NCBI GenBank assembly: GCA_016183535.1
Contig: JACPEK010000004.1
Span: forward strand, 141,807-205,806
From: Candidatus Brennerbacteria bacterium
GTDB taxonomy: Bacteria > Patescibacteriota > Minisyncoccia > UBA6257 > GWB1-50-10
Direction: 5' to 3'
DNA length: 64,000 nucleotides
Part shown: in pieces, positions 6,555 through 31,266 of the stretch
Layout of the letters: every line of letters begins with the position of its first letter
How positions within the stretch are numbered: the first letter of the stretch is position 1
The notes under the pieces: model-generated
Seen by the model: only the letters and a program-made list of their open reading frames with translations
Told to the model about the DNA's origin: nothing
Database searches by the model: none
Program-made: the position numbers and the translations under genes

Positions 6555-9500
6555 ATGAGTAAATCATTCAAAAAAATCGCGTCCATAGGGCTCTCCGTCT
6601 CAACGGCGGTGTACCTCTTTGGCGCCACGGCGATTCCGGCGGGCGCACAGTCCACCGCGGATCTCCAGGCCCAAATTGCGGCCCTCTTGGCGCAGATCAA
6701 CGCATTGCAAGCCCAACTCGCGGCGCAGACCGGCACTCCGGCGGCTCCGTCTTCGTACAGCTTCACCCGCTCCCTCACGGTGGGTTCGGTTGGCGATGAC
6801 GTGAAGGCGCTCCAGCAATGGCTGAACGCGAATGGGTACAAAGTTTCGGCGAGCGGCGCCGGTAGCCCCGGCAGCGAGACGCGGACCTTCGGTCCTGCGA
6901 CCCGCGCGGCCCTCGCCAAATACCAGGCGGCGGTGGGAATCTCCCCCGCGGCAGGGTATTTCGGTCCGGTCACGCGCGCGAAGCTCGCTTCGGCGGGCGG
7001 CACGCCTGTGACGCCGGGCACGACCCCTCCGGTCACGACGGTTCCCGCGGGTACTGACCTCGTGGTGTCCTTGGCGTCCGACACGCCCGCTTCGCGGACG
7101 ATCGGCTCCGGCACCGCGTTCAACCCTGCGGCGAAGTTTGCGTTGACCGCGGGTGCGAAAGCGGTGAAGATCACCGGCATCACAGTCGCGAAGAGCGGCT
7201 TCGTGGCAAACACGAACCTGAACGGCGTCGACATCGTCGACTCGAAGGGCGTGCGCCACGGCAACGTGGTGACCGGCGTGAACGCCGACAACACCGTCTT
7301 GATCACCATGACGACCGACCCCATCACCGTGGCGGCGGGTTCCACCGAGTACATTACGATTCGGTACAACCTCCTCTCGGGGAACTACACGGGGACGGTT
7401 TCTTTCGGTATCAACGCGGTTTCGGCGATCACCGCCGACACCTCGGCGATCTCGGGAGCGTTTCCGCTCTCGGGCGCCACGATGAACATCGTGAACGGCG
7501 GCTCGTCCTTGGCCTCAACGACCTTGGACGTGCTCACCTCCACGGGTTCGTCTTCCTTGAACGTAGATCCGAACAGCTTGCAGGAGATCACACGCTTCCG
7601 CATCCAGGAAACCTCCTCGAATGAGGGCGCGTACCTCCACTCGCTCTCGCTCTACAACTACGGGAACGCGGGCGACAAGGATTACAAGGACGTCACGCTC
7701 GAAGCCCAGGACGGCACGGTCCTCGCGACCGCCCAGCCCTCGGGCCAGTACGTGAAGTTCGCGCTCGCGACCCCCTACTTCATCGACAAAGGCCTCACGA
7801 AGGACTTTACAGTGAAGGCGAAGCTCGTCGACGGCACGACGAAGACGATCCAGCTCGTGGTTTACAACAACTACGACATCGATCTCCGCGGCGCGGCGAC
7901 CTCGGTCTCGGTCATTCCGGGCGCGGGCACGAACGACACTTCGTTCCCGATCGGTAACGGCTTCAACATCCAGACGATCGGCTCGGGCTCGATCACGCTC
8001 ACGCGTGCATCGGATTCCCCGTCGTCCGCGGTAACGCCGGGCGCGACGAGCATCGTGCTCGCGAAGTTCAACGCGAAGCCGACCGGCGAGGACTACGAGC
8101 TCCGGCAGGTCAGCTTCTACGTGGCCACCTCCTCGTCAGGCATCGACCTCACCGGCACGATCTTCGTGAAGGTGAATGGTGCGACGGTCTACAGCGTGGC
8201 GGCCTCGGACAGCTCAAACACGACGGCCTCGACCGTTACCCTCACGTCGTACCCCACGCTCACGCGCGGGACGAACAACGTGATCACGGTGGAAGGTTCC
8301 GTGAACTCGACCGCGACCACGGCCTCGAACTACACCGTTACGAACTTCGACCTCATCCAGGCGAAGCGTTTGGTGACGAACGATCTCGTGGATCCGGGCG
8401 TGGGGACCGTGAACGGTCTCCAGATTGCAGTGAACGCCGCGGTGCTCACCGTCACGACGCTCTCGACGCCGACCGCAAACTCGGTCGTCGCGGGAGTGGT
8501 TGGCTATGAGTACGCGACGATCCAGCTTTCGGCCGGATCGGGCGGCGAGGATGTGAAGGTGACGAAGATTGTGGTAACGCACGCGGGCGGCACCGCAGGC
8601 GAGGTGGGGAACCTCCTCCTCTACAAGGGCTCCGACGCGTCGCCACTCTCGACGACGGCCTCGACGGCGACGAACGCCGCGACCGTAACCTTCAATCTCT
8701 CGGATGCGCTCGTCGTAACGCGCGCGACACCGGTTACGCTCCACCTCAAGGCGGACGCGCTCTCCGGCACGGGTGCGCACACCTTCTCGGTCGCCTCATC
8801 TACCTCGGCGGTAACGGCGACGGGCTTGAACACCGGCAACACCTTGACGAACGGATCTGACATCACGTTCGCGGGCGTCGGCCAGGCGCAGACGCACGTG
8901 GCGGCGGGCACGCTCACGTTGTCCTTGGTTTCCGGCTCGGGCGCTTCGCCCTCGGCGGACCAGGTGATCACGGCGGGCACCTCGAACGCGGTGGTGTTTG
9001 CCTTCAAACTCACCTCGCAGTACGAGGCGCAGAAGATCACGAGCTTGAAGCTCACGGCGACAAGCTCGGGCTCGACCGGCATCGCGACCTCGACCCTGCA
9101 GAACGTCCGCCTCTATGAGGGGACGTCCGGCACGGCGATCTATCCGACGACGGCGTGGGCCTGCGTGGCCGCGGGTTGTACCGCGACGTGGGGCGGCTCG
9201 GGCGTCGACAACATCTTCTCGCAGGCGGTGCCGACGACCGGCATGACAGTCTACGCGAAGGCGGACGTCGCCGCGGGCGGCACGTCGGACCTCGGCAACA
9301 GCTACAAGTTCCTCATCGCGTCTTCGACAGGCGACGTCGCGGTGAAGGGCGTGTCGTCCGGCTCGACCTCGGGTACCCGCACGGGGACCCCGACGGCGTC
9401 CGGCTTCAGCTTTGTGGTGCCGCAGAACGTAACGATTACCGCGGTGGATCCCACGACCGCAACGGATCGCGGGACGAGCTCGGGCATCAACGTGGCGGTC

Positions 9501-9974
9501 TTCAAGGTGACGAACAACGGCACGGCGCCGATCCTCCTCTCGACCTCGACCTTGAGCTTCACGAATGGCGGCTCTGCCACCACGACGACAGCTTTCAAGA
9601 TCTACGCGTCGGCGGTGGGCGGCGGCTCGGCTGACACCTCCGGATGGAACAGCGGCAACGGGTATCTCTCGAGGGCGGGCGACACAGGCGCTTCCTCCAC
9701 GATCTCGTTTGCCACCACGACCATCACGGCGGCGGAGCAGAAGATCGACGGCGGTTCATGGCGGTACCTGACGATCAAGACCACGGCGGCATCGGCGAAC
9801 AACAACACGTACCAGTTCTCCGTGTCGGCATTGGGCAACATCTTGTTCAATGCGGCCGAGTCCGATCTCGGGTTCTCCGGGAACCCCTCGTCCGATTCCG
9901 ATCTCTCCGACACGAGCCTCGGTCTCTACGCGGACGGTTTGCCGTCACTGGCGACCATCACCGCGAAGAACTAG
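6555..9974 (+). CDS. Large secreted cell-surface protein with coiled coil, PG_binding_1-like peptidoglycan-binding domain and a >800-aa Ser/Thr/Ala/Gly-rich beta-rich region (S-layer/adhesin-like)
   Basis: Signal peptide present. Heptad-like segment LQAQIAALLAQINALQAQLAAQ. A peptidoglycan-binding motif reads VGDDVKALQQWLNANGY...FGPATRAALAKYQAAVGI. The rest is a long low-complexity T/S/A/G-rich stretch. Confidence 0.8.
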   Translation: MSKSFKKIASIGLSVSTAVYLFGATAIPAGAQSTADLQAQIAALLAQINALQAQLAAQTGTPAAPSSYSFTRSLTVGSVGDDVKALQQWLNANGYKVSASGAGSPGSETRTFGPATRAALAKYQAAVGISPAAGYFGPVTRAKLASAGGTPVTPGTTPPVTTVPAGTDLVVSLASDTPASRTIGSGTAFNPAAKFALTAGAKAVKITGITVAKSGFVANTNLNGVDIVDSKGVRHGNVVTGVNADNTVLITMTTDPITVAAGSTEYITIRYNLLSGNYTGTVSFGINAVSAITADTSAISGAFPLSGATMNIVNGGSSLASTTLDVLTSTGSSSLNVDPNSLQEITRFRIQETSSNEGAYLHSLSLYNYGNAGDKDYKDVTLEAQDGTVLATAQPSGQYVKFALATPYFIDKGLTKDFTVKAKLVDGTTKTIQLVVYNNYDIDLRGAATSVSVIPGAGTNDTSFPIGNGFNIQTIGSGSITLTRASDSPSSAVTPGATSIVLAKFNAKPTGEDYELRQVSFYVATSSSGIDLTGTIFVKVNGATVYSVAASDSSNTTASTVTLTSYPTLTRGTNNVITVEGSVNSTATTASNYTVTNFDLIQAKRLVTNDLVDPGVGTVNGLQIAVNAAVLTVTTLSTPTANSVVAGVVGYEYATIQLSAGSGGEDVKVTKIVVTHAGGTAGEVGNLLLYKGSDASPLSTTASTATNAATVTFNLSDALVVTRATPVTLHLKADALSGTGAHTFSVASSTSAVTATGLNTGNTLTNGSDITFAGVGQAQTHVAAGTLTLSLVSGSGASPSADQVITAGTSNAVVFAFKLTSQYEAQKITSLKLTATSSGSTGIATSTLQNVRLYEGTSGTAIYPTTAWACVAAGCTATWGGSGVDNIFSQAVPTTGMTVYAKADVAAGGTSDLGNSYKFLIASSTGDVAVKGVSSGSTSGTRTGTPTASGFSFVVPQNVTITAVDPTTATDRGTSSGINVAVFKVTNNGTAPILLSTSTLSFTNGGSATTTTAFKIYASAVGGGSADTSGWNSGNGYLSRAGDTGASSTISFATTTITAAEQKIDGGSWRYLTIKTTAASANNNTYQFSVSALGNILFNAAESDLGFSGNPSSDSDLSDTSLGLYADGLPSLATITAKN

Positions 9975-14878: not shown

Positions 14879-16029
14879 AACAATACAAGCTTGCCATACT
14901 CGCATCGCACCCAATCCAATATCAGGCTCCGTTATTCAAAGCGATCACGGAGAGCGGCGAGTTCGATCTTATGGTGTATTTTGCGGGGAAGGGAAACGCG
15001 GCGGCCAAGGCCTACGATTCCGAGTTCGGAAGAGATATCAAATGGGATATCCCTCTCCTCGAGGGGTATCGACACGAGTTCCTCGATTCCAAGTTTGAAT
15101 TACCCCGGCGTCTTCTTTTAGGAAAAGTGCCAATCAATGCCGTCCTGATTCTCGGGTGGAACCTCCTAGAGTTCATCCTCGTGTTCCTTGCGGCGATCGT
15201 TTCCCGAACGCCGATCTTTTTACGCGCCGAAAACCCACTAAAGCAAGAGCTGTTGAAAAAGGGATTCGCCCAGCCGATAAAGCGGTCTGTTCTACGTGTT
15301 CTTTTTCATTTTGTTTCGGCGTTCTTGTACATAGGGAAGGAGAATAAGGAATTTTATGAGCATCTTGGCGCTCCGCCCCGGAAACTGTTCTTTGTTCCCT
15401 ACGCGGTGGACAATGAAAGATTTTTGGATGACCGGAAACGTTTTTCCCCACGGAGAAGCGAGCTACGGAAGGAGCTCGACATTTCAAAGAACGCCTCGGT
15501 GACCCTTTTTGTTGGCAAGTTTATACCAAAAAAGCGTCCCATAGATCTTCTCCGGGCGTACGCCGCCCTCACGGTTGATAACAAGGCGCTCGTGTTTGTG
15601 GGCGAGGGGGAGTTGCTTGGAGCCATGAAAGATTTTGTAAAGGAAAATAAATTGAGCGATGTCCATTTCGTCGGATTCAAGAATCAGACAGAAGTAGGAA
15701 AATACTACGCGATAGCCGACGTTTTTGTTCTGCCATCCGGCATCGGCGAAACGTGGGGGCTCGTGGTAAACGAAGCGATGTGTTTTGGGCTTCCTATTGT
15801 AACTTCCGATATGGTGGGGTGTGTTCCCGATCTCATCATCCCCGGTGCTACCGGCTATACATTTCCACTAGGGGACGTTCCTAATTTAGGAAAGATTCTT
15901 GGTGATTTGCTAAACAACAAAGAAATGAGGAAGAAATTAGGTGAGAGATCCGTTCGACACATCTTCTCTTACAGCTTTAAAGAGGACATCAAAGGGATAA
16001 AAAGCGCATTATTGAGAACAGCACCATGA
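14875..16029 (+). CDS. Glycosyltransferase family 4
   Basis: Contains PSGIGETWGLVVNEAMCFGLPIVTSD. GTG start overlapping the upstream stop. Confidence 0.85.
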   Translation: MKQYKLAILASHPIQYQAPLFKAITESGEFDLMVYFAGKGNAAAKAYDSEFGRDIKWDIPLLEGYRHEFLDSKFELPRRLLLGKVPINAVLILGWNLLEFILVFLAAIVSRTPIFLRAENPLKQELLKKGFAQPIKRSVLRVLFHFVSAFLYIGKENKEFYEHLGAPPRKLFFVPYAVDNERFLDDRKRFSPRRSELRKELDISKNASVTLFVGKFIPKKRPIDLLRAYAALTVDNKALVFVGEGELLGAMKDFVKENKLSDVHFVGFKNQTEVGKYYAIADVFVLPSGIGETWGLVVNEAMCFGLPIVTSDMVGCVPDLIIPGATGYTFPLGDVPNLGKILGDLLNNKEMRKKLGERSVRHIFSYSFKEDIKGIKSALLRTAP

Positions 16030-17054
16030 AAGTACTGCTGGGAGGATTTCCGGGGAGCGGGACATCGGAACACTTCGCCCGTAGAGCGTTCGAAAACTTG
16101 GGGGTAGAATTGGAATTCTTCGATTTTTCCTCCTACCACACCTCCCCTTTTAATAAGGCGGTGAACAGATTTCGGGAGGTCCCTCTTTATTTCGGAACGC
16201 AGAAATTGAACGCTGAATTAATTGAAGCCGCTCGAAAATTTAAACCTGACTTCATCCTTCTTTTTAAGCCTATTCTTATTAATCCAAGGGTCGTTCTCGC
16301 CCTAAAGGAGACGCCATGCAAGGTATTTTCGTGGTATCCCGATTATGTCTCGTTTCCCAAAACCGCGAGTGTTCTTTTCTACGCTTCTATCTCGGCCTAT
16401 GATTGCCATTTTTCTTTTAATTACGCGAACGCAGAAGAATTAAAAAATATGGGTGCCGTGCGCTCACTTTTTATTCCGTGCGGAGCGGATTCCGAGTGTC
16501 ATAAGCCGACCCTCGTTCCCGAAAAAGAAAGGACACAATGGGCCGCTGATATTGCGTTTGTAGGCACCTACGCACCAGAGAAACGCGTGGAGTTTCTTGA
16601 GAAACTATGCGGTGAAGGATACCACATAAAGATTTGGGGAAATGCATGGGAGGGGCTCCCCAAAGATTCATGCCTCGCCAAGAGGGGGTGTGTGCAATAT
16701 CGTGCCGTGAATTGCGAAGAAATGGGGAAGGTCGTCGCGGCATCCAAGATCATCCTTGCCTTTGTGCGTGGTCACAACAAAGAGACGCTCGCCTGCCGTA
16801 CGTTCGAAATCCCCGCCTATGGAGGTTTTATGTTGCATGAGCGTACCGCGAAGACGGGGGAGTTTTTGAAAGAGGGAGAAGAGGCGGAGTTTTTCGCCGA
16901 CTACCACGAGCTTAAGAGAAAGATAGATTTTTATCTCTCGCATGGAGAAGCAAGGAAAATAATTGCGGAGCGGGGACGGCGGCGCGTGGTAGAAGGAGGA
17001 AATTTAATGGTGGACCGGGTTCGTGCCATCATTGAAGTTTTTAAGACTCTCTAA
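16026..17054 (+). CDS. Glycosyltransferase-like protein (CgeB / Glyco_trans_1_2-like)
   Basis: C-terminal half reads FVGTYAPEKRVEFL...KIWGNAWEG...RTFEIPAYGGFMLHE, resembling the CgeB-type GT-B C-domain. Confidence 0.55.
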   Translation: MKVLLGGFPGSGTSEHFARRAFENLGVELEFFDFSSYHTSPFNKAVNRFREVPLYFGTQKLNAELIEAARKFKPDFILLFKPILINPRVVLALKETPCKVFSWYPDYVSFPKTASVLFYASISAYDCHFSFNYANAEELKNMGAVRSLFIPCGADSECHKPTLVPEKERTQWAADIAFVGTYAPEKRVEFLEKLCGEGYHIKIWGNAWEGLPKDSCLAKRGCVQYRAVNCEEMGKVVAASKIILAFVRGHNKETLACRTFEIPAYGGFMLHERTAKTGEFLKEGEEAEFFADYHELKRKIDFYLSHGEARKIIAERGRRRVVEGGNLMVDRVRAIIEVFKTL

Positions 17055-17060: not shown

Positions 17061-18128
17061 TTGAACGCTATGAAGAAAAAAAAGACCATTCTTATCACCG
17101 GGGCTGCTGGCTTCATCGGGAGCAATGCCCTTGATTATCTTTTTGGGAAGTACCCCCACTATCGGTTCATCGTGCTTGATGCGCTCACCTATTCCGCAGA
17201 CGTAAAAAATATTCCCGACTACATAAAACAGAGCAATCGATTCGTCTTTTGGTATGGCGACGTGAAGAATGCGAAGATTGTGGACCATCTTGTCAGCCAA
17301 GTGGATGTGGTAGTGCACTTCGCCGCCGAGACCCACGTGACCCGCTCCATTTTTGACGATTCCGCCTTTTTTGAAACCGACGTAATCGGCACGCAACGGG
17401 TTGCGAACGCGGTCTTGAAGCATCGTGCGCGCGTGAAGCGTTTTATACATATTTCCACGAGTGAGGTGTATGGCACGGCCGAGACGCGAAAAATGAGCGA
17501 AACGCACCCACTGAATCCCCAGAGTCCTTATGCGGCCGCAAAAACAGGCGCCGATCGTCTCGTGTATTCCTACCTTATGACGTATAAGATTCCCGCGACT
17601 ATCATCCGCCCCTTCAATATGTATGGACCACGTCAGCACCTTGAAAAACTCATTCCGCGCTTCATCACGAGTTTTATTTTGAATGAGCCTCTCACTATTC
17701 ACGGCACAGGGGACAGCAGCCGCGATTTTACCTACGTGGATGACCTGGTTCGCGCGATTGATCTCGTAATTCATGCTCCAGGAAAAAAGGTAGAGGGAGA
17801 GGTGTTTAATGTGGGTTCGGAGAAAAGCTATTCCGTAAATGCGATTGCAAAGCTTATTACCCGCATGATGGACCACCAAACAGAGAAAAAGACGAAGCAT
17901 ACGACCTATGCGTTGAATGTGGGAGATCGGCCGGGACAGGTATTTAGGCATACTGCGGACACATCAAAAATACGGCGGGTGCTCGGCTGGAAACCGCTTA
18001 TCTCATTCGAAGAGGGGCTCGAGCGTACCGTTGAGTGGTACGTAAAAAATGGAGAGTGGTGGCGCGATAAGGTTTGGATGCGGCACGTTCCGATAGAAAC
18101 GGAGGGGGGCAAAAGAGAGCTTCACTAA
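17061..18128 (+). CDS. NDP-hexose 4,6-dehydratase (RfbB-like extended SDR)
   Basis: Contains ILITGAAGFIGSN...LDALTYSADVKNI and a YAAAKTGAD catalytic Tyr-x3-Lys motif. This matches the dTDP-glucose 4,6-dehydratase pattern (GxxGxxG, LTYAGN-like, YxxxK). Confidence 0.8.
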   Translation: MNAMKKKKTILITGAAGFIGSNALDYLFGKYPHYRFIVLDALTYSADVKNIPDYIKQSNRFVFWYGDVKNAKIVDHLVSQVDVVVHFAAETHVTRSIFDDSAFFETDVIGTQRVANAVLKHRARVKRFIHISTSEVYGTAETRKMSETHPLNPQSPYAAAKTGADRLVYSYLMTYKIPATIIRPFNMYGPRQHLEKLIPRFITSFILNEPLTIHGTGDSSRDFTYVDDLVRAIDLVIHAPGKKVEGEVFNVGSEKSYSVNAIAKLITRMMDHQTEKKTKHTTYALNVGDRPGQVFRHTADTSKIRRVLGWKPLISFEEGLERTVEWYVKNGEWWRDKVWMRHVPIETEGGKRELH

Positions 18129-18140
18129 AAATCTGCGAGG

Positions 18141-19397
18141 ATGAGGAAAAAACAGTTTCGAGCTGGCAAAGATTGGATATGGTACGCGCCGAATACTACC
18201 GATGTGTTCGGAGAGAAAGAAATACGCGCGGTAGAGAAAACGCTTCGTGCGGGGTGGCTTACGACTGGGAAAGTGACCGCCGAATTCGAACGAAAGATCG
18301 CGAAACTGTTCGGCAAGAAATACGGGCTTTTTGTGAACTCCGGTTCTTCTGCGAACCTTCTCGCGTTCGCGGCAAGTAAATTTTCGAAAGGGAGCGAAGT
18401 CATCACGCCCGCCTGCACGTTCAACACCACCATTGCGCCCATCGTCCAAATGGGTCTAGTGCCGGTACTGGTGGATGTGGTGGCGGGAAAGTACACCCTT
18501 AACACGCGCGAACTTGAAAAGGCCCGCTCACGGAAAACCGTTGCGGTCATGGTACCCCACCTTATCGGAAACTTTGTGGATATGGTCGCCGTTCGTGCAT
18601 TCTGTAGAAAACATGAATTGGTTTTCATTGAGGATAGTTGTGATACGATCGGGGGTCTTTATCACGGGAAGCCGTCTGGAATGTGGAGTGATATTGTGAC
18701 TACCAGCTTCTATGCGTCCCATTTGGTGACTGCGGGAGGAGCCGGCGGCATGCTTATGACGAACGACAAGAAACTTCGTGAGCGGGCGAGAGTGATACGC
18801 GACTGGGGGAGAGGTATTTCGCGGCACGACGAAAAGATACGTTCCCGCCTTGCGACATTCCGTATTGACGGGAAACCCTACGACAGCGCATTCGTGTTCG
18901 TGGAGCGCGGATACAACTTCCGGCCGACCGAGATGCAGGCAGCATTCGCGCTGGAACAACTAAAACGTCTTTCTGGTTTTGCCGCGGCACGAAGGAGAAA
19001 CTTCAAAGTACTCCATTCGTTCTTCCGTCGTTACGAAGAGTTCTTCATTCTTCCCGAAGAACTTCCGAAAACGCGTACGAATTGGCTCGCATTTCCACTC
19101 ACCTTAAGAGAAGGAGCGCCGTTCAAGCGAAACGACCTCGTGCGCTATCTTGAGGACCACAAGATCCAGACGCGGCCGCTTTTTTCCGGCAATGTACTGA
19201 AGCAACCGGCGTATCGCGGTGTTTCTCATCGCGTGATAGGAAAGCTTCCGCATTCGAACCTCATTCTCCGGAACTCGTTCCTCATCGGTGTTCACCACGG
19301 TATTACTCAAGAGATGCTCGACTATCTTTTCCGGGCGTTTGAAGCGTTTGTTGTAAAATACGACACCATATTAAGAGGCGCGAAGCTTGCTCCTTAG
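18141..19397 (+). CDS. DegT/DnrJ/EryC1-fold sugar 3-dehydratase-like enzyme (ColD / E1(DdhC)-like; His replaces the PLP lysine; no Fe-S cysteine motif)
   Basis: Contains WYAPNTTDVFGEKEIRAV...VNSGSSANLLAF...SFYASHLVTAGGAGG (His where aminotransferases have Lys). The region after RDWGR lacks the CxC...C cluster of E1. The C-terminus reads IQTRPLFSGN. Confidence 0.75.
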   Translation: MRKKQFRAGKDWIWYAPNTTDVFGEKEIRAVEKTLRAGWLTTGKVTAEFERKIAKLFGKKYGLFVNSGSSANLLAFAASKFSKGSEVITPACTFNTTIAPIVQMGLVPVLVDVVAGKYTLNTRELEKARSRKTVAVMVPHLIGNFVDMVAVRAFCRKHELVFIEDSCDTIGGLYHGKPSGMWSDIVTTSFYASHLVTAGGAGGMLMTNDKKLRERARVIRDWGRGISRHDEKIRSRLATFRIDGKPYDSAFVFVERGYNFRPTEMQAAFALEQLKRLSGFAAARRRNFKVLHSFFRRYEEFFILPEELPKTRTNWLAFPLTLREGAPFKRNDLVRYLEDHKIQTRPLFSGNVLKQPAYRGVSHRVIGKLPHSNLILRNSFLIGVHHGITQEMLDYLFRAFEAFVVKYDTILRGAKLAP

Positions 19398-19922
19398 CGT
19401 TTTGAGTAGTGTCTTGTGTTCTTCAATTACATCTTTTGGTAACTCAGTAAGAAGGAAAAACACTCCGGTTTTGGAATCTTTAATTCCCCTCTTTTTCCGG
19501 CTCAAAAAAATAAGAGAGACTTCCTGTCCTCGCGGCGTTTCTTTTTCTTCAAGCGCGAAGAATCGAGGTTTTGTGAGTGAAAATTTCACCTCTTGCTTCT
19601 GAATTCTTAGAAGTGCGTCTCTAATCTTTTCGCCGGGGCGAAGCACGCTCCCCGGAATATGCCATCCCTTCCAGTATCTGTCGTTTCGATAAGTGAGAAG
19701 CGCCTCCATTTTTTTTCCTGAACCTTTTGTTACAACGAGTTCTATGGGGTTCACGGTGAATGTTTTGCACCACGCGTCAAAAAGAGCAGGCGAAACAGGG
19801 AAACGAACTTTTCGGAGCAAGCCTATCAATACGCGTTCTTCGCGGAAACTTAACAATGAGTTTTGTTTGTGGTTTTGCATTTTGGGAAATTGTAACACGG
19901 ATTCCTCTTTCCGGCGTGCCAT
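19371..19922 (-). CDS. Hypothetical basic protein (183 aa) encoded antisense to the operon, in an AT-richer gap
   Basis: It fills the 567-bp gap between two + strand genes. It is the only minus-strand ORF in 30 kb. No recognisable motif. Confidence 0.35.
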   Translation of the reverse strand: MARRKEESVLQFPKMQNHKQNSLLSFREERVLIGLLRKVRFPVSPALFDAWCKTFTVNPIELVVTKGSGKKMEALLTYRNDRYWKGWHIPGSVLRPGEKIRDALLRIQKQEVKFSLTKPRFFALEEKETPRGQEVSLIFLSRKKRGIKDSKTGVFFLLTELPKDVIEEHKTLLKTLRSKLRAS

Positions 19923-19963: not shown

Positions 19964-20911
19964 ATGAATAAAGTAAAATATTTGATCACGGGAGGAACGG
20001 GTTTTGTGGGAGCGAATTTCATTCGAACGTTCGTTGCGCGCGGGGATGAGGTGTATGTCACGGTACGGTCCCACTCAAACCCATGGCGCCTTTCCGATAT
20101 CAAAGATCGTGTTCATTTCTGTGAGGTAAATCTTGAAGAAGAGGCGGAAGTGGCCCGCGTAGTAAGGTTGGTCGCTCCCGAGGTTATCCTCCATTTTGCA
20201 ACGTACGGAGGATCCCAAGGGCGCGAGCAGGATGTTCGAACGACCATAGCGATGAATGTGCTCGGCACCATTAACCTTATGCGCGCTTCGGTGGAAACGG
20301 GGTTCTCGTGTTTCATAAACACCGGCACCTCCTCCGAATATGGCGAGAAGGACCATCCTATGTGTGAGAACGAGCTTCCCGAACCTAATAACCTCTACGG
20401 CGTCACGAAAGCCGCCGCAACCATGTTCGGGCGTTTTTTAGGTAGGAAGCACAACCTTTCTCTCGTTACCATGCGTCTCTTCTCGGTGTATGGATACTAC
20501 GAAGATCCTAGACGGTTGGTGCCGGTGGTGATAAAGGCGTGTTTGAAGAACGGCGAGCTCGCTCTTGCGTCCTCCTCTTTCGTGCGCGATTTTGTCTTTA
20601 TCGAAGACGTGATCGGAGCATATGATGCCGCGATAGCCCACCGTGAAGATATCAAGGGCGAGGTGTTCAACGTGGGTACCGGAATGCAGCGCACACTTGG
20701 CGATGTGGTGACGATCGTGAAACGCGTCACTGGTGCGACTATCGAGCCGTCGTACGGAGCCGCTACGCCCGTTCAGCACGAACCCGCGATGTGGACCGCA
20801 AACGTCTCGAAGATCAAGCGGATGCTCGGCTGGGAACCGGAATATTCGTTGGAGGATGGGATAGCGAAGAATGTGGAATGGTTCAAACAGAATCCTTCGC
20901 TGTATCAATGA
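19964..20911 (+). CDS. NAD-dependent epimerase/dehydratase (extended SDR)
   Basis: Contains YLITGGTGFVGANFI and YGVTKAAATMF (YxxxK). The ATG at 19964 is preferred, since the upstream extension overlaps the antisense ORF. Confidence 0.85.
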   Translation: MNKVKYLITGGTGFVGANFIRTFVARGDEVYVTVRSHSNPWRLSDIKDRVHFCEVNLEEEAEVARVVRLVAPEVILHFATYGGSQGREQDVRTTIAMNVLGTINLMRASVETGFSCFINTGTSSEYGEKDHPMCENELPEPNNLYGVTKAAATMFGRFLGRKHNLSLVTMRLFSVYGYYEDPRRLVPVVIKACLKNGELALASSSFVRDFVFIEDVIGAYDAAIAHREDIKGEVFNVGTGMQRTLGDVVTIVKRVTGATIEPSYGAATPVQHEPAMWTANVSKIKRMLGWEPEYSLEDGIAKNVEWFKQNPSLYQ

Positions 20912-21738
20912 AAGTTTCGCACTCTCCAACTACCCACCAACTGCAAAGTGTCGCGCGTACCGTGCGGCAGTTGGTTTTGGATATGGTGACGCAGAGCAAA
21001 AGCGCTCACCTCGGGAGCAGTTTCTCTGTAGTGGATATCCTCGTCGCACTCTATTTCAATGCGATGAGGGTCTTCCTGAAAAATCCGAAGCATCCAAATC
21101 GGGATCGTCTTCTTTTGAGTAAGGGCCATGCGGGTGCCGCTCTCTATGCTGTGCTGGGTGTGCGAGAGTTTTTCAATGTGAAACTGCTCAAAAAATATCT
21201 TCGGAACGGAACCGCACTTGCGGGACACGCGAGTCAAGCCGCGGTTCCCGGCGTTGAACTTTTTACCGGCTCATTGGGTCATGGTCTTCCGATTGGGACG
21301 GGGATGGCGTTCGCGGGGAAACTCGATAAGAAATCATACCGGGTGTTCGTGGTGATGAGTGACGGAGAATGTGACGAAGGGTCCAACTGGGAAGCCATCC
21401 TTTTCGCGGGGCACCATCAACTGGATAATCTTGTGGCGGTGGTGGATTACAACAAGTGGCAGTCGTTCGGGCGGACTAAGGACATTCTGGACCTCGAACC
21501 GTTCGCGAAGAAATGGAGGGATTTCGGTTGGAATGTAAAAGAGTGCAATGGGCACGATTTTAAGGCGCTCACGAAGGCATTCGCCAAAATCCCGTTCGCA
21601 AAAGGAAAGCCAAGCGTGCTCATCGCCCATACCGTGAAAGGGAGGGGACTTCCCTACGAAAACGAGCTTCGCTCGCACTATAATTCTCCCACCGAGGAAG
21701 AATATCGGTTGGCGAAAGAGCGCATCAAGCATCTATGA
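20908..21738 (+). CDS. Transketolase, N-terminal (ThDP pyrophosphate-binding) subunit, pair 1
   Basis: Contains SKGHAGAALYAV and GSLGHGLPIGTGMA, plus the ThDP/Mg motif VMSDGECDEGSNWEA. The start overlaps the upstream stop (ATGA). Confidence 0.9.
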   Translation: MKVSHSPTTHQLQSVARTVRQLVLDMVTQSKSAHLGSSFSVVDILVALYFNAMRVFLKNPKHPNRDRLLLSKGHAGAALYAVLGVREFFNVKLLKKYLRNGTALAGHASQAAVPGVELFTGSLGHGLPIGTGMAFAGKLDKKSYRVFVVMSDGECDEGSNWEAILFAGHHQLDNLVAVVDYNKWQSFGRTKDILDLEPFAKKWRDFGWNVKECNGHDFKALTKAFAKIPFAKGKPSVLIAHTVKGRGLPYENELRSHYNSPTEEEYRLAKERIKHL

Positions 21739-22664
21739 GAATAGCCTTTATGAAGGCGCTCACGCGTCTTGTAAAAAAAGACAAGCGGGTAATGCTTCTC
21801 ACCGGAGACCTTGGATTCTCGGTCTTTGAGGACTTTGCGCGTCAGTTCCCAAAACAATACCTCAACTGTGGGCTCGCCGAGCAGAATATGGTGGGCATGG
21901 CGGCGGGGCTCGCGTTGAGCGGCAAAAAAGTGTTTGCGTACTCCATCGTCCCCTTTGCAACAATGCGACCATTCGAGCAGGTTCGTGACGATGTGTGTCT
22001 CCACAATCTGGACGTAAAAATAGTGGGAGTAGGCGGTGGGTATAGCTATAGTCAGCTCGGCGCGACGCACCACTCCATCGAAGACATCGCCATCATGAAG
22101 GTGCTGCCGAACATGAAAGTGTTGGTTCCTGCCGACCCCATAGAAACGGAGTTGGCGGTGAAAGCGATGGCGCGCGACCGCGGTCCGGCGTATCTTCGTT
22201 TGGGTAAGAGCAAGGAAGAAAATTTGCACCGCAGAACCTTTCCGTTCGCGATCGGACGATCCAATGTTCTGCGGAAAGGAAGCTCTGTGACCGTCATAGG
22301 ATGCGGTCCGATCCTCAAAAATGTGCTGCGGGCGGCGGAGATCCTGGCGAGGAAGAACATATTCTGCAAGGTCATTTCCATGCCGACCGTGAAACCATTG
22401 GACGAACGCGTGGTCATGAGCGCGACGAAGACCGGACTTGTTATCACTGTGGAGGAGCACAGCGTGATTGGCGGACTGGGGGATTCAGTGGCATCTGTGC
22501 TAGCCCAAGCGGCTCTTCCTAAGAAATGTCGACTCAAAAAAATCGGTGTCGAGGACCGGTTTATGAAGATCGTGGGTGACCAGGAATATTTAAGGTCACA
22601 AAATGGCCTTTCTCCGGAACAGATCGCGAGGTCAATAACTTCACTGATTAAAAAAAGAAGTTAG
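21735..22664 (+). CDS. Transketolase, C-terminal (pyrimidine-binding + C-terminal domain) subunit, pair 1
   Basis: Contains LTGDLGFSVF...GLAEQNMVGMAAGLA and EEHSVIGGLGDSV. Confidence 0.9.
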   Translation: MRIAFMKALTRLVKKDKRVMLLTGDLGFSVFEDFARQFPKQYLNCGLAEQNMVGMAAGLALSGKKVFAYSIVPFATMRPFEQVRDDVCLHNLDVKIVGVGGGYSYSQLGATHHSIEDIAIMKVLPNMKVLVPADPIETELAVKAMARDRGPAYLRLGKSKEENLHRRTFPFAIGRSNVLRKGSSVTVIGCGPILKNVLRAAEILARKNIFCKVISMPTVKPLDERVVMSATKTGLVITVEEHSVIGGLGDSVASVLAQAALPKKCRLKKIGVEDRFMKIVGDQEYLRSQNGLSPEQIARSITSLIKKRS

Positions 22665-23825: not shown

Positions 23826-24764
23826 ATGAAAGAACACCATATTTTCAGTCCTGATGATTTTTCCTCGGCCATAGGTGAGCCCTTAAGCGAGCGGGTGAAG
23901 AGTAAGATAGAGGAGTTGAATATCGAGTATGCACGGATGACACCGCAGGAGAGGGATGAATGCATTAAAACCAGCGTGAAGATACTACTGGACCCGGAAT
24001 TCGACGCGTCCGGAGCGCACCGGTTGGGCAAGTGGGAAAAGGGATGGTCAGAAAACCTGCAGGCATTCCGAGAGAGGGGGAAGGGGGGCCTTGTGCCGGG
24101 CTACTTTTCTGCCACCCGCGATTTGGTCAAGTGGGGAAAGTGGAAGCAAGAGTATATCCGCCCCCTTCAGGGAAACCTCGACTATAAGTTTCTCTCCATA
24201 ATTTTGGAGTGGCTTTTTGAGAAATATATTCCTGCCGCGAGCTCCGTGTACGAGTTTGGGTGCGGCACGGGCCACCACCTTCTGAAGGTGCGGGAATTCA
24301 ACCCGGAAGCAAAGATCTACGGCTTGGATTGGGCCGAAGCGTCCCAGGAGATTATCAAAGAAATGGTTGCAAAAGATGTAGCCAAGAATACCTACGGAAA
24401 GAAATTTGATTTTTTTAATCCCGACGAATCGTTCGCGCTCGACGCCAACAGTGTGGTGTATACCGTAGGCGCTTTAGAGCAGGTTGGAGAAAAACATGAG
24501 AAGTTCATCGCGTATTTGCTCAAGAACAGGCCTAAAATATGTTTCCATGTGGAGCCGATTGGGGAACTGTTGGACGATTCAAATCGCACGGATTTTCTTA
24601 CCCAATCGTACTACCGGAAGAGAAACTATCTCTCGAATTTTGTGAACCACCTCAAGGCGCTGGAGAAAGAGGGGAAAATAAAGATTGAAAAAGCACAAAG
24701 GACCTATTTGGGAGGGAGCTTGCTCACGGAGTATGCGGTGGTCATGTGGAGTCCGGTGGCATAG
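23826..24764 (+). CDS. Class I SAM-dependent methyltransferase
   Basis: Motif I reads VYEFGCGTGHHLL, followed by GLDWAE. Confidence 0.7.
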   Translation: MKEHHIFSPDDFSSAIGEPLSERVKSKIEELNIEYARMTPQERDECIKTSVKILLDPEFDASGAHRLGKWEKGWSENLQAFRERGKGGLVPGYFSATRDLVKWGKWKQEYIRPLQGNLDYKFLSIILEWLFEKYIPAASSVYEFGCGTGHHLLKVREFNPEAKIYGLDWAEASQEIIKEMVAKDVAKNTYGKKFDFFNPDESFALDANSVVYTVGALEQVGEKHEKFIAYLLKNRPKICFHVEPIGELLDDSNRTDFLTQSYYRKRNYLSNFVNHLKALEKEGKIKIEKAQRTYLGGSLLTEYAVVMWSPVA

Positions 24765-24766
24765 CT

Positions 24767-25735
24767 ATGAATTACCGGACATTAGGCGCTACTGGCATTT
24801 CGGTTTCCGAGATAGGTTTTGGCACGTGGGGAATCGGCGGGCTCACCGAGGGCGCCACCTCGTACGGCGAGACCGACGACGCGGTGTCGCTTCGCGCGCT
24901 CGCGCGGGCCCTCGAACTCGGCATGAATTTTTACGACACCTCGAACATCTACGGCCACGAGGGGCACGCGGAGGCACTTCTTGGGGAGGCATTTGGTAAC
25001 CAACGCGAAAGAGTTGTGCTTGCGACAAAAGTCGGATGTGTAAAGCACGGAGGGCCATACGACGTGTCACCGTCCTATATCCGTAGCTGCCTCGAAGCAA
25101 GCCTGCGCCGCCTCAAAACTGACTACGTCGACGTGTACCAACTTCATAGCGTGCCGCTTGAACTTGTGCGGGAGACCCCCGAATGTTTTGCAACATTGAG
25201 AGAGCTAAAGAAGGAAGGAAAGATCCGCGCGATCGGATATTCGGTGAAAAACCCCTCCGATGCCAAGACGGCGATAGAAGAATTCGGCGTGGATGTAGTG
25301 CAACTAAACTTCAACATGATGGACCAGCGCGCGCTTACCGAAGGAATCTTTGATGTGGCCCGTGTGCGCGGCGTTGGCATCATCGTACGGACACCCTTCG
25401 CCTTCGGATTCCTTACCGGAAAAGTCACCGACACTCAGTTCGATTCTCGGGACCATCGTTCCGTGTGGTCGCCGGCACAACTCGCGCGATGGAGGGAGTC
25501 CCCGAACGTTTTTTCCCCGGTGAACGATAAGGGCATCTATACTCCCGCGCAGTTCGCGCTGAAGTTCTGCGTCGCGTTTCCGGAGGTGTCCACGGTGGTC
25601 GCGGGCATGCTCACGGAAACCCAGGCGGAGGAGAACGCGACGGCGAGCGATCTCCCTCCGCTCACCGCCGCACAGCTCGCGGCGATCCGAAAGATCAGAG
25701 AGGTGAACACGTTTTTCGTAAGCGAAAAGAAATAA
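24767..25735 (+). CDS. Aldo/keto reductase family oxidoreductase
   Basis: Contains YRTLGATGISVSEIGFGTW, NFYDTSNIYG and IRAIGYS (AKR catalytic tetrad context). Confidence 0.85.
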   Translation: MNYRTLGATGISVSEIGFGTWGIGGLTEGATSYGETDDAVSLRALARALELGMNFYDTSNIYGHEGHAEALLGEAFGNQRERVVLATKVGCVKHGGPYDVSPSYIRSCLEASLRRLKTDYVDVYQLHSVPLELVRETPECFATLRELKKEGKIRAIGYSVKNPSDAKTAIEEFGVDVVQLNFNMMDQRALTEGIFDVARVRGVGIIVRTPFAFGFLTGKVTDTQFDSRDHRSVWSPAQLARWRESPNVFSPVNDKGIYTPAQFALKFCVAFPEVSTVVAGMLTETQAEENATASDLPPLTAAQLAAIRKIREVNTFFVSEKK

Positions 25736-25825
25736 CCCGCGTAGCCGTCAGTGATTGTCAAGGCAAGAATATTGGTATATAACCAAGGCAAAAGACATTA
25801 CACAATCATAAAGAGACCTCATTCT

Positions 25826-26347
25826 ATGGAAGCACATAAAACGACACTGGACGGCGTATTGCTCATACGGCCCGACTCTCCCATCCACGAGGATTTTCGA
25901 GGCAGGTACGTGACCGCGTACCGCAAAGCCGAGTTCGAAAAGATGGGCATTAACGTGGAGTTTGTGAACGAAAGCTACTCCACCTCTTCAAAGGGGGTGC
26001 TTCGCGGCATCCATGCAGAGACGGATAATTGGAAGCTCATCTCCTGCAGGCGCGGGTGCTTCTACTTGGTGGTGGTCGTGTGCGACGAGCAGTCGAAAGA
26101 TTTCGGAAAATGGGAGTCATTCACGCTCACCGAGCATAATGCGCTCCAAGTGCTCATACCTCCGGGATTCGGGAACGCCCATCTCGCCTTGAGCGACGAC
26201 ATTATGTTTCACTACTTGCAATCCAACTATTTCGATCCCGCCCGTCAGACCACGTACCGCTACGATGACCCGAGGTTCGCCATCTGGTGGCCGATAAAAA
26301 ATCCACTTCTTTCTCCGCGCGATGAAGCGGGGAAGTATGTGGAATGA
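25826..26347 (+). CDS. NDP-4-keto-6-deoxy-sugar 3,5-epimerase (RfbC-like cupin)
   Basis: Contains DFRGRY, SKGVLRGIHAE, LISCRRGCFYLVVV and IPPGFGNAHLALSDD, matching the RfbC signature pattern. Confidence 0.85.
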   Translation: MEAHKTTLDGVLLIRPDSPIHEDFRGRYVTAYRKAEFEKMGINVEFVNESYSTSSKGVLRGIHAETDNWKLISCRRGCFYLVVVVCDEQSKDFGKWESFTLTEHNALQVLIPPGFGNAHLALSDDIMFHYLQSNYFDPARQTTYRYDDPRFAIWWPIKNPLLSPRDEAGKYVE

Positions 26348-26466
26348 TCGACCTCATAGCTCTCGCGCCCCGCATATCAATGCGGGGCGTTTTTTATGCT
26401 CTTGCCAAAATCCCATCGGTGGTATATAACCAAGTCAGAAAACTTTTATAACCAAAGGAGACATTA

Positions 26467-27261
26467 ATGGAGAACTTAGCGGCAATAGCGAAGCAGTGCC
26501 GGCAGAAGGTTCTGGAAATGGCATATGCCGCGAAGGATTCGCACATCGGATGTGCGCTATCTTCCGTGGACGTGTTGGTCCTGCTTTTCTTTCGTGTGAT
26601 GAACGTAAATCCCGAAGACCCGCGTTTTTCCGAAAGGGATCGGTTCATTTTGAGCAAGGGGCACGCGGCAGCGGCACTCTATGCGGTCATGTCCGCGCGC
26701 GGATTTTTCCCCCGGGAAGCGCTCGCAACCTTCGCACAGAACGGAAGTGAACTCGCGAGCCATGTGGAACGGAAGCTTCCTGGCGTGGAGACCAATGGCG
26801 GCTCCGGCGGGCACGGACTTTCGATTGGTGCCGGTATGGCGCTTGCCGCACAGGCGGACGGCGCGAACTATCGCATCTTCATTCTCATGGGAGACGGGGA
26901 ATTGCAGGAAGGGTCTGTGTGGGAAGCGGCAATGTTCGCCTCATCGCGCAACCTTAGCAACCTCACCCTTATCGTGGACCGGAACGGGTTCCAAACGTGG
27001 AACAAGGTGGACGATATCGTCGCCGTAGAATCCCTTGTGGAGAAATTCAGGGCGTTCGGGTGGGATGCGGACGAGGTTAACGGTCACGATTTCGAACGGC
27101 TCGGCAGCGTCATCGAACGAACGGGCGACCGTCCACATGCCATCATTGCACGCACCGTGAAAGGGAAAGGTGTTTCTTTCATGGAAGGTGATGGCGTCTG
27201 GCACTCCAAATCGATGTCGGACGAACACTATCATCGTGCTATGAAGGAGGTGCAATCATGA
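26467..27261 (+). CDS. Transketolase, N-terminal subunit, pair 2 (paralog of 20908-21738)
   Basis: Contains SKGHAAAALYAV, GSGGHGLSIGAGMA and ILMGDGELQEGSVWEA. Confidence 0.9.
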   Translation: MENLAAIAKQCRQKVLEMAYAAKDSHIGCALSSVDVLVLLFFRVMNVNPEDPRFSERDRFILSKGHAAAALYAVMSARGFFPREALATFAQNGSELASHVERKLPGVETNGGSGGHGLSIGAGMALAAQADGANYRIFILMGDGELQEGSVWEAAMFASSRNLSNLTLIVDRNGFQTWNKVDDIVAVESLVEKFRAFGWDADEVNGHDFERLGSVIERTGDRPHAIIARTVKGKGVSFMEGDGVWHSKSMSDEHYHRAMKEVQS

Positions 27262-28166: not shown

Positions 28167-28183
28167 TAATATTCATTCGTTCA

Positions 28184-28220
28184 AAAACCTCGGTGTTTCA
28201 CACCCGAGGTTTTTTATTTT
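28184..28220 (+). terminator. Rho-independent terminator after transketolase pair 2
   Basis: Hairpin acctcggtg-tttca-cacccgaggt followed by tttttatttt. Confidence 0.6.
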
Positions 28221-28241
28221 TCACGTCCGCATGCGAGACCA

Positions 28242-31259: not shown

Positions 31260-31266
31260 AGTTATT

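Follow-up and report, generated by a model that had tools for sequence, protein, structure and literature searches.

The window, i.e. the whole 64-kb stretch of DNA that was analysed, contains at positions 17061-19397 two co-directional ORFs: an RmlB-like 4,6-dehydratase gene and, directly downstream, the gene of a DegT-fold protein predicted to be a 3-dehydratase, a pairing already pointed out in a preliminary description of this DNA. The conserved neighbours of this pair are a NUDIX gene, an SDR gene and a split transketolase. The genes concerned are the following:

16026-17054, + strand: glycosyltransferase (Glyco_trans_1_2; PF13524, 89 bits), candidate transferase for the special sugar
17070-18128, + strand: NDP-sugar 4,6-dehydratase, RmlB-like overall (TIGR01181), with TSE (HISTSEVYG) and YAAAK motifs
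18141-19397, + strand: predicted Fe-S-free E1-like PMP-dependent NDP-4-keto-6-deoxy-sugar 3-dehydratase, with the dyad Ser193-His194
19371-19922, - strand: NUDIX hydrolase (PF00293, 30.5 bits), possible NDP-sugar hydrolase or regulator
19964-20911, + strand: extended SDR of the Epimerase family (PF01370, 154 bits), candidate YerF-like branch ketoreductase or C4 reductase
20908-21738, + strand: split transketolase-like ThDP enzyme 1, N-terminal (PP-domain) subunit (PF00456, 147 bits)
21735-22664, + strand: split transketolase-like ThDP enzyme 1, C-terminal (Pyr + C domain) subunit (PF02779, PF02780)

A homologue of the glycosyltransferase gene was found directly upstream of the 4,6-dehydratase gene in the related loci L001, L006, L034 and L038 and in the P0019 context. 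In four contexts (P0019, L002, L033 and L037) a NUDIX gene adjoins the E1-like gene, and an SDR gene lies between the E1-like gene and the transketolase in L003, L004, L006 and L034. For the window SDR, the likely start is ATG 19964 and not 19760; the PF01370 domain begins at residue 75 of the long ORF.

The gene at 17070-18128, for which the ATG at 17070 is a likelier start than the upstream TTG at 17061, encodes a 352-aa extended SDR. It reaches 322 bits (3e-96) against TIGR01181 (dTDP-glucose 4,6-dehydratase; cutoff 365) and 86 bits against the profile of CDP-glucose-type 4,6-dehydratases (cutoff 278), and the closest solved structures are RmlB enzymes (2hun, 237 bits). The YxxxK motif is kept as YAAAK. 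It had been described as RfbB-like, which is correct for the protein overall, but its score stays below the TIGR01181 cutoff and the catalytic TDE of RmlB is replaced by TSE, as it is in 8/8 CPR partner proteins. TSE is also the catalytic motif of GMD. Because STSEVYG is the motif of UXS/ArnA, a reading of this protein as a UDP-glucuronate decarboxylase was considered; it was rejected, RmlB structures scoring about twice as high (237 vs. ~120 bits for UXS).

The second gene encodes a 418-aa protein of the DegT/DnrJ/EryC1 family (PF01041, 280 bits), in which SFYASHLVTAGGAGG is present. Its residues 2-405 match positions 26-437 of the 440 of the RfbH profile NF011936 with 395.5 bits, below the equivalog cutoff of 423, and its residues 2-403 match residues 23-432 of E1 (PDB 3bcx; 2.4e-85), so that the colinearity with RfbH along the whole length that had been noticed beforehand is confirmed over ~400 residues. 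By sequence, E1 is nearer than ColD (37-38% vs. ~27% identity; 290 bits for reductive E1 vs. 167 bits for ColD), and the entry 9wvy ("putative NDP-4-keto-6-deoxyglucose-3-dehydratase") scores 154 bits. An AF2 model (pLDDT 90.5) has E1 3bcx as its top PDB fold match (TM 0.87); perosamine synthase, an aminotransferase, gives a TM of 0.81.

In this protein, the counterpart of the catalytic His220 of Yersinia E1 (Lys in the H220K entry 3bb8) is His194, and MAFFT places it in the column of the residue mutated in ColD H188N (3b8x). The HMMER alignment to ColD was one residue off, 3b8x being the H188N mutant, which was settled by the entry title and MAFFT; the pair defining ColD as a dehydratase is S187/H188, in agreement with the title of PDB 3gr9. 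The proposal that a His occupies the position of the Schiff-base Lys of aminotransferases is thus borne out by both alignments and by 230/230 homologues, among which a search for a conserved substitute Lys found none; the nearby compensating Lys that the preliminary description had named as counter-evidence is thus absent. Because His194 replaces this Lys, the protein is predicted to bind PMP non-covalently. The Glu of the "GEGG" motif, conserved in E1, ColD and aminotransferases, is Ala in the window protein ("GGAGG"). The pair 17070-18128 and 18141-19397 very probably strips a nucleotide sugar of its 6- and 3-hydroxyls; the product to be expected of such a His-type DegT enzyme next to a 4,6-dehydratase is a 3,6-dideoxy-4-keto sugar.

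We then compared the [2Fe-2S] motif of E1 (C193-X57-C251-X1-C253-X7-C261) with the window protein, where it is incomplete: C193 alone is retained, and the same cysteine is found in ColD too. C251 and C261 are replaced by Ile226 and Ile233, respectively, and C253 falls in a gap. The Cys-rich loop of E1 aligns with "RDWGRGI---SRHDEKIRSRL", with a 3-residue deletion, and is replaced by "GISRHDEKIRSRL"; this is the least confident part of the AF2 model (pLDDT 67-77). Among 230 close homologues, nearly all from Patescibacteria, the His is found in 230 and the cysteines of the three cluster columns in none. The occurrence of the His without cluster cysteines is therefore not a matter of chance, and the absence of [2Fe-2S] ligands asserted in the preliminary description holds for the whole group.

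Ser193-His194 is invariant across the aligned homologues. In a neighbour-joining tree, the Fe-S-free homologues form a clade that is sister to Fe-S E1/RfbH and apart from ColD. The label "ColD/E1-like" given to the protein at first was thus right for the kind of protein, a His-type and not aminotransferase-type DegT enzyme, but the protein is neither ColD nor E1 and belongs to a third clade. From the 150 nearest clusters at 50% identity, the dyad and the Fe-S motif are strongly associated (Ser-His with a Cys-free loop, 57 vs. 4; Ala-His with the Fe-S motif, 64 vs. 9; Fisher P = 5e-23). About half of these 150 clusters are cluster-free; an E1-like sequence therefore does not imply an Fe-S/E3 mechanism, and the database name "CDP-4-dehydro-6-deoxyglucose reductase, E1" is likely wrong for the cluster-free proteins. 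In addition, Rosetta-stone fusions join a cluster-less E1-like domain to a 4,6-dehydratase-like SDR (P0232) or to RmlC+RmlD-like domains (P0275).

We also searched for an E3-type reductase. No gene with Fer2, FAD_binding_6 or NAD_binding_1 domains was found among the ~55 annotated ORFs of the window or in ten other Pfam-annotated homologue contexts. A regular expression for E3/AscD (plant-type 2Fe-2S + RxYS), applied to all locus ORFs, gave no convincing match, not even in the neighbourhood of genuine Fe-S E1 genes, so that the missing nearby E3 is weak evidence when taken alone. The genes of an E3, or of a generic ferredoxin/flavodoxin system, could lie outside the 64 kb, and SpnQ works with generic cellular reductases (PMC8987622).

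The transketolase encoded downstream of the SDR gene retains the catalytic residues of the family but has lost those that bind sugar phosphates. Both of its subunits score below the NF004559 cutoff (250 bits vs. 488 for the N-terminal one). With the numbering of E. coli TktA, the N-terminal subunit retains His26/66/100/261, Asp155 and Asn185, and the C-terminal subunit retains Glu411 and His473 and has lost Arg358, Ser385, His461 and Asp469. The window contains a second split pair further downstream, and in both pairs all ThDP/catalytic residues (H26, H66, H100, D155, N185, H261, E411, H473) are kept, while the phosphate-pocket and stereo-control residues are changed (R358 to G/S, S385 deleted, H461 to G, D469 to L/C, R520 to K/M). 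Lacking the phosphate-binding and Asp469 residues of TktA, these enzymes are unlikely to be housekeeping pentose-phosphate enzymes. It was also considered unlikely that they feed sedoheptulose-7-P into a heptose pathway: the phosphate-binding residues are gone, some loci with such transketolases have no kinase/phosphatase module, and YerE-like enzymes substitute for them elsewhere.

All 17 complete CPR loci carry exactly one type of ThDP enzyme within 10 kb of the E1-like gene, either a split transketolase (10 loci, the window included) or a YerE/ErwE-like enzyme (7 loci), and never both. Locus L001 additionally has BphJ/BphI-like genes, as in the erwiniose cluster (PMC9306805). The gene logic of yersiniose and erwiniose has been described (PMC9306805, PMC12247030), whereas sugar branching by a split transketolase has had no in vitro demonstration in any organism (PMC12247030); our literature search on Patescibacteria with dideoxy or transketolase glycan work found nothing relevant. 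Because of this 17/17 linkage, the end product is probably a yersiniose-like C4-branched 3,6-dideoxy sugar, as far as gene content can indicate. The 3,6-dideoxy sugar put forward earlier as the product of the cluster is indeed expected from the dehydratase pair, but, given the linked ThDP enzymes, it is probably only an intermediate.

Further downstream, the window carries these genes:

24746-29124, + strand: window-specific insert, not in the compact homologous cluster L034, comprising the next five entries
24746-25735, + strand: aldo-keto reductase
25751-26347, + strand: RmlC-like epimerase
26467-27261 and 27258-28166, + strand: second split transketolase-like pair
28300-29124, + strand: FabG-like SDR
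29268-33382, + strand: two tandem B12-binding radical-SAM (KedN5-like) putative C-methyltransferases (PF02310, PF04055)
33459-37518, + strand: sugar-activation module, contiguous with the dehydratase pair in L034, comprising the next five entries
33459-34451, + strand: HddA-like GHMP kinase
34454-35506, + strand: SDR
35494-36240, + strand: sugar-1-P nucleotidyltransferase
36206-36784, + strand: GmhB-like HAD phosphatase
36832-37518, + strand: CmcI-like methyltransferase

The tandem radical-SAM proteins score 252 and 179 bits against NF033712 (cutoff 700), and both are kept in L034 (43-54% identity). In the sugar-activation module, the HddA-like kinase (141 bits vs. a cutoff of 600) has heptose-7-P kinases as its top PDB matches; the GmhB-like phosphatase and the HddC-like nucleotidyltransferase score 150 bits (cutoff 178) and 82 bits (cutoff 300), respectively. 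The product may be a 3,6-dideoxyheptose, for which there is some contextual support. In L034 the kinase/nucleotidyltransferase/phosphatase module adjoins the dehydratase pair, GmhA is found in L006 and L009, and 3,6-dideoxyheptoses are real products of C. jejuni (PMC10440746). Against a heptose, tblastn found no GmhA in the 64-kb window, and the window protein is only 27% identical to ColD, whereas heptose 3-dehydratases that have been characterised share 62-67% identity with ColD (PMC10440746).

The explanation that we favour, with somewhat better than even confidence, is a pathway in which a 4,6-dehydratase and an Fe-S-free ColD-like 3-dehydratase precede C4 branching by the split transketolase. 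Judging from its family, the product of 17070-18128 would oxidise and dehydrate an NDP-hexose (or NDP-heptose) to an NDP-4-keto-6-deoxy sugar. The product of 18141-19397 would then form a PMP-ketimine with C4, His194 would abstract the C4' proton and the 3-OH would be expelled; what the protein itself shows is its family, the His and the Ser-His dyad, and the chemistry would be that of E1 and ColD by analogy. A ColD-like finish is most likely because there is neither a [2Fe-2S] site nor an E3 partner: the enamine would be released and hydrolysed to an NDP-3,6-dideoxy-4-keto sugar and ammonia, and L-glutamate would return PLP to PMP. This protein is best read as a ColD-type, glutamate-recycled, PMP-dependent NDP-4-keto-6-deoxy-sugar 3-dehydratase, although its greater sequence similarity to E1 than to ColD and the Ala of "GGAGG" speak against this. 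As the conserved gene order suggests, the 4-keto product would be the acceptor for the split transketolase (20908-22664), which would attach an acyl branch of two carbons to C4. Reduction of this branch would fall to the SDR (19964-20911), in analogy with YerE/YerF of the yersiniose pathway, and the glycosyltransferase (16026-17054) would install the sugar in the surface glycan of a roughly 38-kb island.

The plain, unbranched 3,6-dideoxy sugar of the preliminary description, with the transketolase-like genes serving another purpose, appears unlikely. In that case the 4-keto sugar would only be epimerised by the RmlC-like enzyme (25751-26347) and reduced by an SDR, and the outcome would be a hexose resembling colitose, abequose or ascarylose, or else a 3,6-dideoxyheptose. 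The window does contain the RmlC-like gene and several SDR/AKR genes, as had been noticed, and the P0275 fusion to RmlC+RmlD-like domains is what would be expected if a simple 3,6-dideoxy-L-sugar were made; the activation module contiguous with the pair in L034, the GmhA genes of L006 and L009 and the heptoses of C. jejuni can also be read this way. However, the RmlC-like gene lies outside the conserved core, the 21-kb locus L034 having no copy of it, the transketolases without sugar-phosphate-binding residues are unlikely to supply sedoheptulose-7-P, and the constant ThDP linkage with its exclusive swap of transketolase and YerE-like enzyme is hard to explain if these genes are unrelated to the pathway.

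Two other explanations concern the 3-dehydratase itself. It is improbable that the enzyme keeps the reductive mechanism of E1/SpnQ without its own cluster, receiving two electrons from a partner that docks near PMP (a ferredoxin, a flavodoxin or another partner encoded elsewhere). Its sister position to Fe-S E1, with the identity and fold similarity given above, would fit this mechanism, as would the generic reductases serving SpnQ, and our inspection covered 64 kb of the genome; but the three cluster-specific cysteines are gone in all 230 members, the Ser-His signature goes with ColD-like cluster-free proteins, and none of the eleven contexts (the window and ten relatives) contains a reductase. 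We know of no precedent in which electrons reach PMP other than through the cluster of E1. Very improbable, too, is that the protein is no dehydratase but a PMP-dependent 4-aminotransferase, or has another DegT-fold activity on the 4-keto-6-deoxy sugar. SpnQ does aminate in the absence of a reductase (PMC8987622), the fold is common to aminotransferases such as perosamine synthase, and "GGAGG" departs from all characterised dehydratases. Against this, the aminotransferases of the same loci have Asn-Lys (SFxxNK) where the E1-like clade invariantly has Ser-His, bona fide DegT aminotransferases are separately present in L001, L002 and L004, and ThDP branching requires a 4-keto acceptor, not a 4-amino sugar.

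Reviews recognise three sugar 3-dehydratases, E1, SpnQ and ColD, with two mechanisms among them (PMC8987622). The large clade of the window protein, not previously characterised, combines the scaffold of E1 with the cluster-free Ser-His site of ColD, and it may offer an experimental handle on the rise of the reductive E1 mechanism from a hydrolytic one. The strict ThDP linkage indicates yersiniose-like branched sugars in uncultured CPR bacteria, and the linked transketolases are natural candidates for the still-unproven transketolase-type ketone branching sought by biocatalysis groups (PMC12247030). A broader reading, which we put forward tentatively and as a whole, is that CPR bacteria build surface C4-branched 3,6-dideoxy hexoses or heptoses by a new trio (TSE dehydratase, cluster-free 3-dehydratase and split transketolase), that the 4-keto sugar receives a two-carbon unit from the split transketolase without a phosphate pocket, and that the cluster-free E1-like state is ancestral, Fe-S E1 having arisen by a short Cys-rich insertion. 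If true, transketolase-type branching of sugars would for the first time be known from outside Streptomyces secondary metabolism, and in the window the system would be elaborated further by the second transketolase pair and the two B12/radical-SAM C-methyltransferases.

Among known systems, E1/DdhC/RfbH/AscC (CDP-6-deoxy-L-threo-D-glycero-4-hexulose 3-dehydrase of Yersinia and Salmonella; 3bcx) is the best match in sequence and fold. The catalytic His residues of E1 and the window protein share one alignment column and both follow SFY with a two-residue spacing, and "RDWGR" occurs in both proteins. Unlike E1, the window protein has Ser-His in place of Ala-His, its clade has Leu/Ile for the second His of E1, C251, C253 and C261 are absent, no E3 gene lies nearby, and its partner 4,6-dehydratase is RmlB-like and not of the CDP-glucose type. 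In the biosynthesis of yersiniose, YerE uses the E1 product as its acceptor (PMC9306805).

With ColD (GDP-4-keto-6-deoxy-D-mannose 3-dehydratase; 2gms, 3b8x), the window protein shares the absence of an Fe-S cluster and the Ser-His dyad, and it is likewise predicted to act directly after a TSE-type 4,6-dehydratase. Hydrolytic release and glutamate-driven regeneration of PMP, the mechanism of ColD and of the C. jejuni GDP-heptose C3-dehydratases (PMC8987622, PMC10440746), are predicted for it as well. Unlike ColD, it has an additional residue between SFY and the His, its conserved "GISRHDEKIRSRL" loop is longer, "GGAGG" stands where ColD has "MEGG", and its partner dehydratase is of the RmlB lineage, not GMD.

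In the yersiniose, erwiniose and caryophyllose pathways, E1/E3 is followed by a ThDP enzyme (YerE/ErwE/MMAR_2332) and then by the reductase YerF. The CPR loci have the same order of 4,6-dehydratase, 3-dehydratase, ThDP enzyme and SDR, with a YerE-like enzyme in seven relatives; in contrast, the window and nine other loci use a split transketolase-like enzyme and not the decarboxylase-type YerE, the 3-dehydratase is cluster-free, and the hosts are Patescibacteria and not Proteobacteria or Mycobacteria. Split-gene transketolases have been proposed for hydroxyacetyl branching in the miharamycin/amipurimycin clusters and in 13 Streptomyces clusters (PMC12247030). Those are found in secondary-metabolite clusters, whereas the enzymes described here belong to CPR surface-glycan islands; the two are likened by gene organisation, both being two-subunit transketolase-like ThDP enzymes encoded beside keto-sugar-forming genes.

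The region flagged in the preliminary description contains two genes read in the same direction, listed here with their neighbours.

17070-18128, + strand: extended SDR, NDP-sugar 4,6-dehydratase-like, with TIGR01181 as best family
18141-19397, + strand: DegT/DnrJ/EryC1 protein of 418 aa, by family profile match
upstream of this pair: Glyco_trans_1_2 transferase
beside the pair, antisense: NUDIX gene
beside the pair, likely start at 19964: SDR
20908-22664: split transketolase-like pair (TK1)
26467-28166: second split transketolase-like pair, in a window-specific insert

The protein encoded at 18141-19397 aligns colinearly with the Fe-S 3-dehydrase RfbH/E1 over ~400 residues and matches the E1 structure 3bcx (2.4e-85), with an RfbH profile (NF011936) score of 395.5 bits, below the cutoff of 423. 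It shares 100% identity with an NCBI entry named 'Candidatus Brennerbacteria' (Patescibacteria/CPR). Its His194, in the motif SFYASH, falls in the column of E1 His220 (Lys in the H220K mutant entry), and MAFFT places it in the same column as the mutated residue of H188N of ColD, the cluster-free Ser-His 3-dehydratase. From the E1 cluster motif C193-X57-C251-X-C253-X7-C261, only C193 is left, a residue also kept in ColD: C251 and C261 are both replaced by Ile, and C253 lies inside a 3-residue deletion. The loop at the site of the Cys-rich loop of E1 reads GISRHDEKIRSRL. It is also the lowest-confidence part of the AlphaFold2 model (pLDDT 90.5), whose best fold match is E1 (TM 0.87), followed by perosamine synthase and ColD (~0.80). 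The preliminary description, which had proposed colinearity with RfbH, a His in place of the PLP Lys and the absence of the Fe-S Cys ligands, is thus borne out by these alignments.

We then considered how widespread this form is. Two homologue searches yielded 230 proteins, which share 50-88% identity with their query; nearly all of the named members are Patescibacteria (Jorgensen-, Wolfe-, Magasanik-, Yanofsky-, Komeili-, Pacebacteria and others). A His occupies the E1-H220 column in all 230, none has a Cys at the three E1 cluster columns, and no conserved Lys at or near the active site was found in their alignment. The cluster-free His-type form is a conserved clade and no accident. In a neighbour-joining tree without support values, built with proteins from 30 genome loci, three His-type groups were found. 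Fe-S E1/RfbH proteins (from Bacteroidales and others; motif RDWGRDCWCxxGxDNTC) form the sister clade of the CPR clade, and the ColD-like group is outside both.

To this we added an exhaustive search over 1.84 billion cluster representatives, in which the CPR clade merges into one 50% cluster. The His is present in 148 of the top 150 representatives, and the loop contains no Cys in 73 and at least three in 71. Cluster-free relatives are common. In these 150 representatives, the residue preceding the His predicts the cluster class, Ser-His going with a Cys-free loop (57 vs. 4) and Ala-His with Fe-S (64 vs. 9; Fisher P = 5e-23). Fusions to a 4,6-dehydratase-like SDR or to RmlC+RmlD-like domains occur in some of the cluster-free proteins and link them functionally to deoxysugar pathways. 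On contig JACPYS010000008.1 (locus L008), labelled Betaproteobacteria, a cluster-free E1-like gene of the CPR type (63% identity) occurs together with a YerE-like gene; either the genes were transferred horizontally or the contig was mis-binned. Inteins occur in some Fe-S-type E1 homologues: P0333 has Hint/intein-splicing and LAGLIDADG domains (Pfam), and P0284 has a long insertion within the Cys-rich Fe-S loop (RDWGRDC...CWC).

The Ser-His dyad of the window protein corresponds to S187/H188 of ColD. The PDB entry 3gr9 is entitled 'ColD H188K S187N', a double mutation that reportedly turned ColD into an aminotransferase. In a 2022 review, PMP-glucoseen is a common intermediate with two fates: E1 and SpnQ reduce it via their own [2Fe-2S] cluster with electrons from E3 or ferredoxin/flavodoxin systems, and ColD hydrolyses it, PMP being restored by L-glutamate (PMC8987622). 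No E3-like gene was found among the ~55 annotated ORFs of the window, nor in ten other Pfam-annotated contexts of relatives. Because the cluster ligands are lacking, no E3-like gene was found in these contexts and the Ser-His dyad is present, a ColD-type chemistry on an E1-like scaffold is favoured.

The partner enzyme agrees with the RfbB-like 4,6-dehydratase announced next to the 3-dehydratase, with a score under the family cutoff (322 bits for TIGR01181, dTDP-glucose 4,6-dehydratase; cutoff 365). The start first given at 17061 is a TTG upstream of the ORF. The nearest solved structures are RmlB enzymes (2hun, 237 bits). Where RmlB has the catalytic Thr-Asp-Glu, this protein has Thr-Ser-Glu (HISTSEVYG), which is kept in eight out of eight CPR-clade partner dehydratases and thus marks a distinct 4,6-dehydratase subfamily.

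The ~38-kb glycan island that holds both genes has a Wzy_C protein (10098) at one end and, at the other, a Wzx-like flippase together with a Bac_transf priming transferase (46013-48805, - strand); its GC is 0.48 vs. 0.58-0.60 in the flanks. Along positions 10000-44000, GC is 0.46-0.55 in the island vs. 0.56-0.65 in the flanks, which could reflect horizontal acquisition or different compositional constraints. At 6555-9974, a 1139-aa protein has a peptidoglycan-binding domain as its sole recognisable one. No Pfam domain was recognised in three successive ORFs at 51357-54119 (192, 521 and 196 aa). Further on are a tRNA-Lys (60143-60218, - strand), a tRNA-Asn (61372-61446, + strand) and a large serine recombinase ORF with Resolvase, Recombinase and Zn-ribbon domains (61432-63060, - strand), whose end overlaps the 3' end of tRNA-Asn; GC falls to 0.42 over the final 2 kb. 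The segment 60143-64000 resembles the border of an element that has integrated at tRNA-Asn.

We inspected 17 complete CPR-clade loci, the window included. A split transketolase is found beside the dehydratases in 10 of them (the window, the context of P0019, L003, L004, L006, L031, L032, L034, L036 and L038), and a ThDP enzyme similar to YerE/ErwE, of the yersiniose and erwiniose pathways, takes its place in the other seven (L001, L002, L005, L008, L009, L033 and L037); no locus has both or neither. L001 also encodes homologues of acetaldehyde dehydrogenase and 4-hydroxy-2-oxovalerate aldolase, the gene set defining the erwiniose cluster; ErwE of that cluster catalyses the condensation of CDP-3,6-dideoxy-4-keto-glucose with a hydroxy-keto acid (PMC9306805). 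This erwiniose-like set (L001 12083-18487: acetaldehyde dehydrogenase, HMGL/DmpG-type aldolase, 602-aa YerE/ErwE-like enzyme) adjoins the dehydratase pair. An ATP-citrate-lyase-like trio is also encoded in this relative, made up of ATP-grasp_2/citrate-binding, CoA-ligase and citrate-synthase-like genes.

Both transketolase pairs of the window keep all ThDP and catalytic residues of E. coli TktA and lack its sugar-phosphate residues and Asp469 (Arg358, Ser385, His461 and Asp469 are missing; Arg520 is Lys or Met); from these residues, they do not resemble pentose-phosphate enzymes. On the most economical reading, a 3,6-dideoxy-4-keto sugar would be an intermediate, which the transketolase would acylate at C4 and the SDR would then reduce, as in the yersiniose pathway. 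The 3,6-dideoxy sugar previously proposed would thus stand as a 4-keto intermediate and not as the end product, a ThDP enzyme being beside the pair in 17 out of 17 loci. The second pair, whose insert also encodes an aldo-keto reductase, an RmlC-like epimerase and a FabG-like SDR, may carry out another branching reaction or a chain extension. Two B12-binding radical-SAM proteins of ~660 aa each, encoded in tandem (29268-31259 and 31394-33382), match the KedN5-like C-methyltransferase family with scores under its cutoff. The compact homologous cluster L034 keeps both of them at 43-54% identity, suggesting that the unusual sugar or its side chain is C-methylated.

The 3,6-dideoxyheptose suggested earlier has circumstantial support and is not established. 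An HddA-like GHMP kinase (best PDB matches: heptose-7-P kinases), a nucleotidyltransferase and a GmhB-like phosphatase are encoded downstream in the window, each below its curated cutoff, and in L034 the module directly adjoins the dehydratase pair. Clear homologues of the sedoheptulose-7-phosphate isomerase GmhA, 42-43% identical to the E. coli enzyme, are found at most 10 kb from the cluster-free E1-like gene in L006 (18596-19150) and L009 (130-615). On the other side, GmhA was not found in the window, and those heptose C3-dehydratases that have been characterised are closely related to ColD and work with GMD-type dehydratases (PMC10440746), whereas the window pair is neither close to ColD nor GMD-type.

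Compared with E1/RfbH, the window protein shares the scaffold but has neither the Fe-S motif nor a nearby E3 partner gene and scores below the curated cutoff. With ColD, it shares a cluster-free Ser-His site, although it falls outside the ColD clade. Judging from its residues, it most likely works like ColD without being a member of that family. No description of a cluster-free 3-dehydratase on an E1 scaffold was found in the reviews and literature searches covered. Keto-sugar branching by split transketolases has been proposed, never shown, and in Streptomyces only (PMC12247030); the gene-order case for such branching in CPR bacteria would be the newer element.
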